Shown: positions 4,330 to 60,532 of the stretch, one piece after another
How the letters are laid out: every line of letters begins with the position of its first letter
Numbering within the stretch: position 1 is the stretch's first letter
NCBI GenBank assembly: GCA_024137785.1
Contig: JAHRHZ010000083.1
Location: 1,319,308 to 1,383,307 of the forward strand
Source: Ginglymostoma cirratum
Lineage: Eukaryota
Length of the DNA stretch: 64,000 nt
Direction: 5' to 3'
Program-made: the position numbers and the translations under genes
Notes under the pieces: generated by a model
Database searches by the model: none
What the model saw: only the letters and a program-made list of their open reading frames with translations
What the model was told of the DNA's origin: nothing

Positions 4330-5415
4330 TCGGAGCATGAGAAGGCCACTTGGGACCTTGGGCATGCTTTGTCATTCAGTAGGATCATGCTGATATGAGT
4401 AATTTAAAATCCTGTATAAGTCCAGTAACTGTCATCCTCTTGTTTATCAAGAATTTATCCATCTCTGCTTTAAAGACTTTCCCTGTACCTTCTTTTGAGG
4501 AAGAGAGTTCCAAAGACTCATGGTCTGCTGAGAGAAAATAAGTTCTCCTTATCTCTCTCTCAAATGGACTATCCCTTATTTTTAAACAGTGACTCTTCAT
4601 TTTAGATTATCCTGCATGAGGAAACATCCTCTCCATAGGCACCCTATCAAGACCTTCTGTGTCTCCTTCCAGTCACTTCTTGTTCTAGCAGATTCAACCC
4701 TCCCTCATAAGACAACCCAGACTTCTCTGAATGCCTTCCTATGCATTTATTTTGTATCCTGAAAGGAGACCAATACTGTTCACAGTATTCTAATTGAAAT
4801 TTCACCAATGCCTTGTATAACTTAAGTATAACCTCCCTACTTTTGTATTCACAACAAATGTTAATACAAAGTAAAATGTGCTGCACTGTCCTGAGGAAGG
4901 GTCACCGGAGCCGAAATGTTAACTCCGATTTTTCTGCACAGATGCTGCCAGACCTGCTGAGCTTTTCCAGCAACTTTGTTTTTGTTAATACTAAGTAACT
5001 TCCCTAATTACTTGCTGTATCTACCTACCAACTTTTTGTAATTCATACATTAGGACACCCAGGCTCCTCTACCTCTCTGAATTCTGCAATCTCTTACCAT
5101 TTGGATAAAATACTTTTTTTACTCTTCATGCCAAAGGACAGTTTATATTTTCCATATCTAACTCACTTTTTTATCCAACCTGTAAACCTTTGTAGCTTCC
5201 TTATGTCCTCTTCACAAATTACTTTTCTGCCCATCTTAATGTCATCAGCAAATTTAGCAACTATACCTTTGATTCTTTCATCAAGCCAATCATCAAAATT
5301 GTTAAAAGTTAAGGTCCATGCACTGATCACTGTGGCACAACCCATTACATCTTGCCTCCCAGACAATGACTCACTTATGCTTAATGTTTCCTATTAGCTG
5401 GCCAATCTTCTGTCA
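4330..5415 (-). mobile_element. Decayed CR1 LINE ORF2 3' part, with a hammerhead element inserted
   Basis: Minus-strand ORF-track peptides AKFADDIKMG, LYKALVKFQLEYCEQYWSP and KVFKAEMDKFL. Confidence 0.88.
4875..4982 (+). mobile_element. Short Penelope-associated element with minimal hammerhead core (4888-4923) and 16-bp TSD
   Basis: gtc-CTGAGGA-agggtcaccggagcc-GAAATGTT-aac followed by cagatgctgccagacctgctgagc. Flanked by tgttaatacaaagtaa (4859-4874) and tgttaatactaagtaa (4983-4998). Confidence 0.72.
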
Positions 5416-5652
5416 CAACTCATTGGAGTAGCAGACTGGAAATCAAGACTGGCTATTTCTAGAGTTATCACAAAAATTAAACATTTTAAATGAAAGACAC
5501 AGAATCCCCAAACTACCTTATCTTCAGACCCAGATAATAGAAAGCCAAGACCAGGTTTCAGTACTGATGTGGGATTTGAATCAAAGATCCTATGGGGCAT
5601 AATTTGGTGGTGTGAAATAAGGCCATACTTCCAAACAAGTGAGATAACAGAG

Positions 5653-5779
5653 ATAGCAGGAACTGCAGATGCTGGAGTCAGAGTCGATACAGTGTGGAGC
5701 TGGAGGAACTCAGCAGGCCACGTAGCATCAGAGGAGCAGGAGAGTCGACATTTCGAGCCTTGACCCTTCATCAGGACTG
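5653..5779 (-). mobile_element. Short Penelope-associated element with minimal hammerhead core (5744-5777) and 14-bp TSD
   Basis: Minus strand reads agtc-CTGATGA-agggtcaaggctc-GAAATGTC-gact. Flanked by gtgagataacagag (5639-5652) and gtgacataacagag (5780-5793). Confidence 0.75.
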
Positions 5780-6037
5780 GTGACATAACAGAGCCACTGA
5801 TCCCCTGGGATAATGAGAGTGTCTGATTAATCTATACCTGACCAGCTGCTTGGTTTCAAGGTTGACCCAGGAGAACTAGATACCCTGTCAAATAAAGGAA
5901 GTGGTGTTTGATTTTAGTAATGAAAATTTTATATGATAAGAAGTTGATGAACCTTTAGTCAATTTTGAATACTAACATCTAGTATGGACTTTAACAAGTT
6001 TTTAGATAGTTTTGGGATAGAAGCGCCTTCAGTTATA

Positions 6038-6338
6038 GTGTCATAAAATCATACAGCGGGGAAACCCTTTGGTCCAATCTGACTATGCCAACCAAGTTTC
6101 CCAAACTGAACTAGTTCCTTTTGCCTGCATTTTGTCCATATCCCTCTAAATCTTTCCTATTCATGTACCTGTCCAAATGTCTTTTAAATGTTGTAACTGT
6201 ACCTGCAATTATCATTTCCTCTGGCAGTTCATTCCACATATGAACCACCCTCTGTGTTGAAAAAGTTACCCCTCAGGTCCTTTTAAATCTTTCTCCACTC
6301 ACATTAAAATTATGCCCTCTACTTTTGTACTCCCCTGT
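6038..6338 (-). mobile_element. CR1 LINE 3' end
   Basis: Minus strand encodes RFKRT.GVTF.TQRVVHMWNELPEE followed by the CR1 3' UTR. Closely similar to 7056-7315 and 21515-21850. Confidence 0.8.
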
Positions 6339-7055: not shown

Positions 7056-7315
7056 AGAGATGTACAGCATGGAAACAGACCCTTCAGTCCAACTTGTCCA
7101 TGCCAACCGGATGTCCTAAATACATCTAGTCCCATTTGCCAACATTTGGCCCATATCCCTCAAAACCCTTCCTGTTCATATACCAATCCAGATGCCTTTT
7201 AAATATTGTAATTTTACCAGGATCCACCACTTCCTCTGGCAGCTCATTCTGTACACACACCACCCTCTGAGTGAAAAAGTTGCCCCTTAGATCCCTTTTA
7301 AATCTTTCCCCTGTC
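7056..7315 (-). mobile_element. CR1 LINE 3' end
   Basis: ORF 7126..7371 peptide GERFKRDLRGNFFTQRVVCVQNELPEEVV...FKRHLDWYMNRKG is the CR1 ORF2 C-terminus. Confidence 0.88.
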
Positions 7316-7454
7316 ACCACATAAGGCAAAACTAGGTGAAATGCAAGTCTTAACAGATGATTTTGTTTCAAAAGACAATGTGTGCTGAAGCCTGTTTTCT
7401 ATAAATAAATTGGCTAGTTGCTTAGAAGGATTCATTTTACATTATCATCCAGGA

Positions 7455-21514: not shown

Positions 21515-21850
21515 GTCACACAGCATGGATACAGACCCTTAAGCCCAGCCAATCCACACCACCCACATTCTTGAACTAAACTAGTCCCACTTGCTTGCAT
21601 TTGGCCCATATCCCTCCAAATTTTTCCTATTCATGTACTTGTCCAAATATCTTTTAAACGTTGTAACTGTATCTAGATGTACCACTTCTACACGAACCAC
21701 TCTGTGTAAAAAAAGTTGCCCCTGATGTCTTTGTTAAGCCTTTCTCCTTTCACCTTAAAAATATGCCCCCTAGTTTTGAACTCACCCACCCTAGCAAAAA
21801 GACCCTTGTCATTCACTTTATCCATGCCCCTCATGATCTTATAAACCTCA
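21515..21850 (-). mobile_element. CR1 3' end fragment, tail-to-tail with the previous copy
   Basis: cagcatggatacagaccctt...ctagtcccacttgcttgcatttggcccatatccctc...atgcccctcatgatcttataaacctc. Confidence 0.8.
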
Positions 21851-35900: not shown

Positions 35901-36404
35901 CATTTATTCTTTGCTTTACTCTTTGTGCGAATTACACATGTCTGTTACTGAAACATTCACAATTATGTCTGCATGCTTGTAAGTTGAGATATTTATTTTG
36001 ACAGTTTAGATCCTTCTATAAAAGGTCAAAGCGCAAGTAGAATTTTTCACTGAATGGCGTACTCCTGCTCCTAATTTGTGGGTTTGGGGATAGACACGAA
36101 AGTGAAGTTGAGGCCACAGTGTGATCTGTCATGATCTTTTCAAATGTCAGCACATTCATTGCAAGCATCCAAATGTATCAATGTTCAGTGTTCATTTTGG
36201 GCAAGCTCCTTATTTTGCACAATGAGAACTGATAGCAGAATTAAGCTTAAATAATTATGGTCATCATCTCTGCATTTCTGTCACCTCAGCTGTTGCTTCA
36301 TCTTGCGGTTTTTGCCATTGATAGTTTAATTGCCATCTAACTCTGTCCTTGTCAATTTTCCTTGTTTTGGACTCCAGACACCTGACTGGTATGACATGAC
36401 CTAA

Positions 36405-36545
36405 GAGATAGTAAGAACTGCAGATGCTGGAGTCAGAGATAACACAGTGTGGAGCTGGAGGAACACAGCAGGCCAGGTAGCATCAGAGGAGCAGAAAAAT
36501 TGACGTTTTGGGTCGGGACCCTTCTTCAGAAAGGGAATGAAGTGG
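36405..36545 (-). mobile_element. Short Penelope-associated element with mutated hammerhead core (36499-36532)
   Basis: Minus strand reads ttt-CTGAAGA-agggtcccgaccc-AAAACGTC-aat. Body closely similar to 5653-5779. catgacctaa is repeated at 36395-36404 and 36546-36555. Confidence 0.72.
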
Positions 36546-38384
36546 CATGACCTAACATCAGTTTTGGAGTATCTTGATTTTTGTTTTGGTGTTCTCAAAA
36601 CAAATAGTGAATTTGCATTGGAGTTTCCAATTACACCATAGGTGCCTGTCTGCTGTGTACCACTGAACCAATCAAACTAGGAGAGCCCAGGTTAAATCCA
36701 CCATGTACTGAATGAACCTATTTAGTTAGGACACTGCTACAGTCATAACAATAGTATGTACCATTCCTGTCTTAAGAGAATAATATTCTACACTTCTTAA
36801 ATGATTCGTAATGAGTTGAGGGTGAGACTTGCAGCAATATAATTAGATTACATATGTTGCTGTGCCAGTTTTTCCCTTCCAACAATATTTGAGAATGTCC
36901 ACTCATGCTATTAATTGTCTTTTTGGCTGCTTCCCAAGGAACCATTGATCCAATTATGAAAGTTTCCTCTTTTTTTCCAAATACAAGTTAGTTAAAATTA
37001 CAAAAATTGATAAATAGAACAAGTGTGTGCGTGTGTGTAAGCGCACACATTATCTAACTAGTTGAGAGTTGCCTTAGTGAAGAAATGATTCTGCACAGTA
37101 AAAGTGCATTGAAGATACTTACAGCTAATGAATTACATTTGGAATATGACTTTTCTTTAAGGAAATGAGGCGAAGCCAATTTCTGCCAGGCTCTCAACTT
37201 ATGGTGCTTTAACAAACCTGCAAATTCTATGCACCAAATTATGGTTTTCCCACAAAAAAACCACAAAAATGGTTTTCCCATTTAATCTGTAAGAATATAT
37301 GAAAGACAAAATTAGGTGGAGGAAGGGGTTCATTGAGGTTTCAGTGACAGGTTGCATTCCAAACCAAGAAACTGCTGATCCTCCCTGTCATAGCTGAACC
37401 TTGTTCCATGCCCCTCTATCTTGGCAAAGAGTAGGCATCCTGAACATATTCTCAGCTGTTTACCTCCCAGGAGGCTATGGATGGAGTTTGGTAATTTCAG
37501 ATTGTACAGGGTTGAAAGTATGGGCGTGACTATTGTGCTAACGTGCTTTGATCTTGCAAAGGGACAGGATTCTTAAGTTTGGTAGATATACCTTTTTAAA
37601 AAAATCTGCATTTCTAATCTGAAAGTTGCTAAATGTTTCTGATTTGGATGATCAAGATTTATGCAAAGTAAGGCTCCAGTAAAATATAATGTTGATGTCA
37701 ATACAAGTCTCAGAAAGAAGAAAGAATTTGCATGTGTGTAAAATGCTACTGAGGTAGATTTGAAGAGTAGTCACTCTTGTGTACAATCCTCTAGTGATGC
37801 CATATCTCAACAGTGGAGCCGTCTCCAAGATTTGAGATGGCATCACCATTTGCGTTGGACCTAACCTGGGAAACTGACTTCCTCAATCTCTCTGCCTTTG
37901 TCCCATCTCATGGTACTCCTTAGCAGCTGCCTCTTTGACTAAGTTATTTCTTTTTTAAGATCTTCTGTGATTCAGCATCAGTCTTTGACCACGTTCCTGT
38001 GAAGCTCCTTTCAAAGACATTTTACTTTGTTAAAGGTGCTCAATAAATTGTTTGTGGTTATGTTTCAATCCTTCATCCCTCTGACTGCTGGGAAGCCAAG
38101 CAGGCAACAAAGAGGCAATGAACTCACTGCATAGGGTTGAGGGAAAGTAAATCGGGTAGCATTGTTCACGCAATGCTAAAGAACCTATGTGTGAATAAGG
38201 AAGTAGAGGAGACCAAAGAAGATAAGAATACTAAAAATTAAAACGATTGTCCAAAGGAAAATTTCTCAGGTTTGTTACAAAAGTAACATTTTATTTATGA
38301 ACTGCTAATGATTTTTAAAAGACATTGTGCTGAGAGGAAATCTTTATTACTTGCTTACATTAACTTGAGCACTGTTCTATAGCT

Positions 38385-59399: not shown

Positions 59400-59500
59400 C
59401 AGATGTGGCAAAGGTCATTGGCCTCGTGCGTTAACTGCCGTTTTCTCTTTCTACAGATGCTGCGACCTGAGTATTTCCAGCAGTTTTAATTTTTTTTCCA
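59400..59500 (+). mobile_element. Strongly decayed copy of the hammerhead-associated short element
   Basis: aaaggtcattggcct...cgttaact...ctacagatgctgcgacctgagtatttccagcag parallels 4897-4982. The core nucleotides are lost. Confidence 0.5.
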
Positions 59501-60532
59501 ATTTAAGTATCCACAATAATTGGCTTTCATTCTAGTGCCAATTAAAGGTGGTTTTATCAACACAAAAAGTGCTTCTAATGGCCACGTTTCTTTACATCAT
59601 CCAAACAGCTTTTTGGAACCTGAAGATTAAATGTGATTTGCCAATGAAGTGCAATGGGAACATGTTGAAGGACATGTCATAAATAAGTGCATTTTGCTCC
59701 TTAATTTAAGTAGAGTTCAGACTGTACCTGTTATTTGAAAGATCAAAAAACTAATTTTGCTTACTTCCTAAAGGTTGCAAAACTGCAACTACAGGAACCT
59801 TTTGATTTAAGAGACAAATGTGTGAATTTCTGAAAAACTGGAATCAACATTTGGAAAAGAAATGGATCTTCTAAAGGTGGCGTGGATTTGTCTTGCATTC
59901 CAAAGTTGGATTACTTATATTAATATCCAATGCATTTCAATATTGTGCTGTTTCATCTGATCACTGAAATCAAATTTTTGTACTGGGTATGGAAAAGAAA
60001 ATATCTGCCTTCCCATAACTTGACTATCAAATTGGAATTTATTACCTGTGGATATGTATGCTGGGTAAGAAAGGAGACACTCCCCCAGTGAAATGAAGAC
60101 TTTGATCAAGTGCTGAAATAAAGAATTTTGTCTTGCTACTTGTGCACAACAGTTGTGTTGTGAAGGATACCTAACTTGTAAAGAGTGCAGTAAGTTGTAT
60201 TCACATTTTATGTTTGCAGTGGTTCATATATTTTATAATTGTCAATAAATACTTGGCAAAATTTCCTTGCTTCTAAAGTGAGTGTGGTAACATAGCATGA
60301 GACTGTATTTAATCCAGATTCTCTAATTAGCTGGTTCTTAATTCTCTTTGTCGTACAAATATCCACAAGGAGCAAGGAAAGGTAGTGAAAATTCCTGAAT
60401 TTTTGGGACAAAATCTTCTGACAGAACTGCTGTGAAATGGTTTTATGAAAATCTCCATTTATAACAGGCACTGAAGTGGACTTTATTATCAACCTCATAA
60501 TAATGATTATGACCTTGTCATATTATTTGTAG

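Follow-up and report, generated by a model that had tools for sequence, protein, structure and literature searches.

Judged from their sequences, the two short hammerhead-bearing elements that lie close together in the window (the whole 64,000-nt stretch of Ginglymostoma cirratum DNA analysed here) belong to two Penelope families of Neptune-like type, each element being a terminal repeat (pLTR) that is old and damaged. With a probability of roughly 0.7, we read these elements, A and B, as stubs from the pLTRs of these abundant retrotransposons, likely produced by run-off of the reverse transcriptase (RT) from internal start sites 100-139 nt from the 5' end of the RNA. The stubs work like, and are fragments of, an endonuclease-bearing Penelope-like element (PLE), and they are not a separate ribozyme family. 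In themselves they are unremarkable, decayed ends of retrotransposons. Should the run-off reading be true, they would show where transcription of vertebrate Neptune-type elements starts and from which promoter, explain the abundance of single hammerhead motifs in genomes, and supply a rule, open to test, for two unexplained features of these elements, the one-sided tail and the inverted pLTR. The in vitro system of Poseidon from Anolis carolinensis (PAc) could test the reading directly.

Element A lies on the forward strand at 4888 to 4986 and is a tail-less single stub of the family A pLTR, running from +2 to +101 (+1 being the base four before hammerhead C3) with 92% identity to its family reference. 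Element B lies on the reverse strand at 5650 to 5779 and is a tailed single stub of family B1, running from -1/+1 to +129 with 93% identity. The two, which lie on opposite strands, share 70% identity over 84 nt, and both sequence and coordinates bear out the original prediction of two short elements with a common block. The shared GATGCTG block (window 4940-4986 and 5650-5730) is complementary to a CAGCATC found in the tail of every family aligned, and the two make a candidate RT-binding stem. The bounds first given for element A stand in part: the family-derived sequence is 4888 to 4986, while the 13 nt at 4875 to 4887 (forward strand), which had been counted as element, are junction filler ahead of the start of the family A alignment at 4888. 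We infer the origin of this filler from its last bases, ACT, which match the fold-back remnant at +1 in many family A copies. The near-perfect direct repeats reported around both elements were confirmed. Those of element A lie on the forward strand at 4859 to 4874 (5' copy) and 4983 to 4998 (3' copy) and match at 15/16 positions, and those of element B lie on the reverse strand at 5780 to 5793 (5' copy) and 5639 to 5652 (3' copy) and match at 13/14. The first 4 nt of the 3' copy of A, and 3 nt of that of B, could equally belong to the 3' end of the element itself, which puts the target-site duplications (TSDs) at 12-16 nt and 11-14 nt, respectively.

The claim that element A had interrupted an older CR1 copy also held. 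It splits a decayed LINE fragment on the reverse strand (4385 to 5390, recognized by translation), which we take to be CR1-like, and sits within its RT frame. The paralogues are contiguous across the site, and in 6/11 paralogous copies both flanks are found 35-45 nt apart without the insert. A Pfam search of the CR1-like fragments around element A gave no match. An empty orthologous site for either insertion was looked for in the assembled contigs of the sequencing runs and was not found. Contigs of one run (X21) that differ by 6-10% in the flanks span the junctions of both insertions, indicating that both are old and shared. The window holds two further stubs. One, of B type and overlooked in the original prediction, occupies 36392 to 36555 on the reverse strand (stub proper 36405-36531), with a TSD matching at 12/13 positions (36392-36404 and 36543-36555) and a filler of about 11 nt; the other, at 59409 to 59518 on the forward strand, aligns to family A and is older and more decayed. 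Across the whole window (1-64000) no stop-free frame of at least 170 aa was found. The window is repeat-rich non-coding DNA, with dispersed repeats of about 250 bp at 6052-6302, 7063-7317, 21520-21786, and 481-577.

The hammerhead core that had been noted near the 5' end of each element stands as a motif pattern but finds no backing in Rfam scoring, and both ribozymes in the window are damaged. That of element A (4887 to 4924, forward strand) comprises the core CTGAGGA at 4891-4897, stem II at 4899-4912, and GAAA-TG-TT at 4913-4920, with predicted cleavage after 4920; that of element B (5743 to 5778, reverse strand) comprises CTGATGA at 5774-5768, stem II at 5766-5755, and GAAA-TG-TC at 5754-5747, with predicted cleavage after 5747. 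Element B retains an intact stem I (AGTC/GACT), whereas element A has mismatches in stems I and II, and in each the CG of the dimer palindrome has decayed to TG, so that both copies lack the CG palindrome needed for dimer helix III. The family references have the core, stems I and II, and the palindromic 15.2-16.2 all intact. Rfam reported no hammerhead match for the window, element A, element B, or one younger copy, and the identification therefore rests on the minimal pattern described in the text of PMC4209133. There the minimal type I hammerheads of metazoan PLEs have CUGANGA, an extra base before stem II, and a G-C closing pair, with a palindromic CG in place of helix III, and the motifs are mostly single and dispersed. 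The window elements follow this pattern, except for the lost palindrome; sharks are not named in the text consulted. Single-strand folding was not better than that of shuffled sequences (z -0.2 to +0.9), and the core was not significantly better kept than the rest of the element (4/150 versus 67/1074, p 0.09; 4/250 versus 40/1690, p 0.65).

Membership in Penelope families follows from the longer copies. Searches of the 4.36-Gb genome with the two elements returned 2,942 and 1,978 candidates, 40 of which were scored for each. In family B, 16/30 loci run on upstream in common sequence, from 39 to at least 1500 nt (three reach at least 1.5 kb), and decayed RT and GIY-YIG frames lie upstream of the arms; family A copies extend up to 2.7 kb, with RT, a CX4CX2C linker, and GIY-YIG. 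Pfam matched the decayed frames to RVT_1 (E 1e-5) and GIY-YIG (E 0.005), both below the Pfam cut-off. The PLE frame has 255 protein homologues, elasmobranch (shark and ray) proteins being among the best, and the homologues carry PF00078 and PF01541. Some ray and skate gene models with host-gene names (P0003, P0023, and P0111) match the PLE protein and are probably annotation artefacts or exonised fragments. The Cys linker before GIY-YIG reads CNRRRCNTC in one long copy (L138), which fits CX2-5CxxC and points to the Neptune or Nematis type, to both of which the linker is common in the account of PMC8557442. Thus the longer copies continue into RT, Cys-linker, and GIY-YIG frames, and of the two possibilities first raised, solo PLE termini and a self-contained retrozyme-like family, it is the former that describes these elements. 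Together, two alternative 3' ends (tail-less and tailed), an inverted 5' arm, TSDs, and upstream RT and GIY-YIG make up the EN+ PLE features found here. In five long copies (L137, L138, L140, L145, and L147) the inverted 5' arms are 270-1220 nt long and 91-96% identical to the copy's own direct arm, compared with about 90% between copies, which may mean one template or conversion.

The ends of the copies were examined in 56 hand-placed 10-kb stretches (560 kb, with 189,768 of 560,000 bases N), which held 112 arms, 96 with a clear 5' end and 16 censored; alignment ends are uncertain by about 3 nt. Extrapolated roughly, these arms correspond to 0.9-1.3 million arms in the genome. The 5' end falls between -5 and +8 in 46 of the 96 clear arms, with a mode at +2. 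Among non-inverted arms this interval holds 31 ends per 553 nt at risk (0.056 per nt) against 11 per 4076 nt upstream (0.0027 per nt), a 21-fold pile-up (p 3e-20). Likewise, of 9,956 exact matches to the family A core, the first 100 were scored by eye, and 75 of them diverge from the family sequence within 13 nt upstream of +4 (the scoring pattern excludes about a quarter of random flanks). The 3' ends form two clusters, near +96-105 and +129-139, whose spacing of about 35 nt is the PLE tail signature. Of 129 distinct family copies, 102 could be tested for TSDs (the other 27 run past the reference), and 53 of these have one; six controls with swapped flanks gave 1-3 per roughly 100. The TSDs have a median length of 14 nt (range 8-17), and they also occur in 16/21 position-ordered short loci of family A. 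The copies are thus not randomly truncated ends lacking TSDs, the outcome that had been named as counting against the original prediction: their 5' ends are sharply fixed at stem I and TSDs are common. The proposal that the elements inserted through target-primed reverse transcription, with long TSDs, is upheld. Stubs of different PLE families adjoin or nest in places (L117:5163-5451, L117:9034-9180, and L094:2948-3466), which hints that pLTR ends may be preferred targets.

Inverted pairs hold 34 of the 96 clear arms. All 12 classifiable same-family pairs in the sample consist of one tailed and one tail-less arm, compared with 35:31 among single arms (0.5^12, about 2e-4), which suggests one start site per strand; among the 37 inverted pairs at the search loci, 25 are mixed, two are both tailed, none is both tail-less, and 10 are unclassified. 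The pairs could instead come from a single cDNA copied by fold-back, along the lines of the self-priming model presented in PMC3846280. Filler occurs at the 5' junction of several copies and varies between them. The first 5-11 bases of the element are repeated at five junctions (L179, L180, L285, L310, and L035), resembling RT re-priming at a template end, and a fold-back palindrome centred on +1 has 439 exact occurrences; junctions of these kinds look like the result of run-off where a template ends. A propagating fold-back subfamily marked by T-to-C at +4 was considered and rejected as query bias (13 versus 439 occurrences).

Promoter-like motifs occur at the fixed 5' end in every family. 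Each family reference of about 435 nt contains a single TATWWA, at -29 in A and at -31 in both B1 and B2 (chance per 4-nt window 0.007), although B1 and B2 are related and the test therefore covers only two independent shark lineages. A YYANWYY initiator motif lies on +1 in all three references. These are the consensus motifs of the TATA box and initiator, at their usual spacing. As the stubs mostly begin about 30 bases behind the TATA-like box, they are likely copies of the front of the element RNA and would mark its transcription start; on the evidence of these motifs, the fixed 5' end is likely the predicted start of the PLE RNA. TATAAA is also a weak poly(A) signal; a poly(A) cleavage origin of the +1 end was rejected, family B having no such hexamer there. 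Some observations speak against a start at +1: the modal end is +2, and a cap-derived G is not clearly enriched, a G preceding the end in 7/16 copies ending at +1 and 6/22 ending at +2 (by eye). Nor did any of the 20 long loci prove to be full length with a direct 5' pLTR from +1, as the reading would predict. In 22 runs, all of them assembled contigs and mostly of guessed RNA status, contig depth drops more steeply upstream of +1 in three runs guessed to be RNA than in one other run, a comparison between different organisms and from contigs, which cannot show starts or levels, and one that was therefore set aside. Elsewhere, the PAc template in PMC11167929 has (by eye) a YYANWYY 14 nt ahead of the hammerhead core and, 30 nt further upstream, TATATA, and a putative TATA box and initiator are described for a rotifer (Adineta vaga) pLTR in PMC3846280, while for Penelope of D. 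virilis a TATA-less internal promoter (PMC2377424) and an intron ending at hammerhead stem I (PMC4209133) appear in the accounts given. Literature searches, which leave out Repbase, Dfam, and most subscription journals, turned up no publication that links the ends of PLE stubs to a start site.

An end fixed in some other way is unlikely but is the strongest competitor: a pause of the RT, or an endonuclease cut in a cDNA that reaches further, might set the end at the boundary of stem I, for instance at an upstream C-rich tract or via a hairpin intermediate. The B families are indeed very C-rich upstream of +1, the palindromic junctions centred on one base would also fit hairpin opening, and many copies pass the site (21/96 arms). 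However, the upstream sequence of family A is different and less C-rich, yet its copies have the same end; copies passing +1 are expected from priming at the 3' pLTR; and a pause or cut leaves the TATA-like boxes at -29/-31 in both lineages without explanation. Run-off at the RNA 5' end remains the preferred reading.

Self-propagating ribozyme mini-elements, retrozyme- or SINE-like and copied from short copies by PLE proteins in trans, are a still more doubtful source. Their uniform size, TSDs, and huge copy number, and the excess of short over long copies in family A, would suit such elements, and non-LTR retrozymes are derived from pLTRs in the account of bioRxiv 10.64898/2026.07.22.740005. 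Nevertheless, the retrozyme-like family first proposed is not supported: longer copies run into PLE coding sequence, the 112 sampled arms include no multi-unit tandem array (nine same-strand neighbours lie within 300 nt, none a regular multimer), and no private variant emerged. The candidate private junction variant occurs 13 times versus 439, about the mutation rate, and no variant was diagnostic among 73 positions (lowest p 0.026; 19 short versus 9 long copies, a comparison of low power). In addition, the core is not significantly protected from decay and the fillers differ between copies. The power of these tests taken together is modest.

Recombination between the two pLTRs of full-length elements, to which solo pLTRs are put down in PMC3846280, would leave the TSD and the fixed 5' end intact, but we think it very improbable here: none of the 20 long loci is a full-length copy with a direct 5' pLTR starting at +1, short inverted arm pairs with variable fillers are hard to derive in this way, and a 5' pLTR beginning at +1 would still be required. 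Finally, a splice acceptor at +1, for which the pyrimidine tract and CAG of families A and B1 and the D. virilis intron described in PMC4209133 might speak, or an end set by hammerhead cleavage, is largely refuted, as B2 has CAT at the site with the same pile-up, which argues against an acceptor, the short copies have no common upstream exon, and cleavage would place ends at +33/+35, where non-inverted arms show one end in 737 nt at risk (0.0014 per nt).

In the run-off reading, RNA polymerase II would start at +1, so that the hammerhead would be the fold at the very front of the transcript. Template could come from any copy with its promoter still in place, since priming would be internal and no defined 3' end would be needed. 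The GIY-YIG nuclease would make staggered nicks about 14 nt apart, and extension of one or both ends would give single stubs or head-to-head pairs of a tailed and a tail-less arm. With transcription from +1, the start sites nearest the 5' end would yield cDNAs of 100-139 nt, which would be these stubs, while long transcripts primed at their downstream pLTR would yield variably truncated long copies. Stubs without the TATA box would be dead ends, and ribozyme cleavage would have no part in making them. We lean, by a small margin, toward a fuller account in which the stubs, hundreds of thousands in number, are an in vivo fossil record of the Penelope cycle: a TATA box and initiator would start the RNA on the hammerhead's first base, one enzyme complex would prime both target strands from two adjacent start sites, one for each, the commonest product would be a strong-stop-like copy of the leader, and fragments with a promoter would keep giving rise, in one direction only, to stubs that lead no further. 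For the PAc protein, PMC11167929 describes two adjacent internal RT starts, extension of both target strands, and normal insertion by ribozyme mutants.

A comparison with known systems shows where the shark families agree with and depart from them. EN+ PLEs of the Neptune (or Nematis) type, as described in PMC8557442, have an RT, a CX4CX2C linker, a C-terminal GIY-YIG, a hammerhead pLTR, an inverted 5' arm, and a tail of 30-40 nt at one end, and the shark families match them in all of these. In contrast to the high degree of 5' truncation described there, about half of the arms sampled here are stubs of 100-139 nt with one fixed 5' end, and (TA)n targeting is not evident in the shark TSDs seen. 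PAc resembles the shark stubs in having a tail set by two internal RT starts, extension of both strands, and an upstream, dispensable hammerhead; however, it belongs to a different clade and its ORF begins in stem II, and the text of PMC11167929 contains no short run-off insertions, mapped start, or paired use of the starts. Non-LTR retrozymes (bioRxiv 10.64898/2026.07.22.740005) are, like the stubs, non-coding and pLTR-related with a type I hammerhead, but in that account they are defined by tandem units, whereas the stubs are single or head-to-head with TSDs. Pen2 and Pen3 of Adineta vaga (PMC3846280) have, as here, an inverted pLTR, a tail, a TSD (8-10 bp), a palindromic junction, and a putative TATA box and initiator. 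Unlike these, the shark elements have longer TSDs (median 14), and in the description of PMC3846280 the palindromes are attributed to self-priming, with an antisense strand as template, and no link is drawn between the TATA box and initiator and the ends of the insertions.
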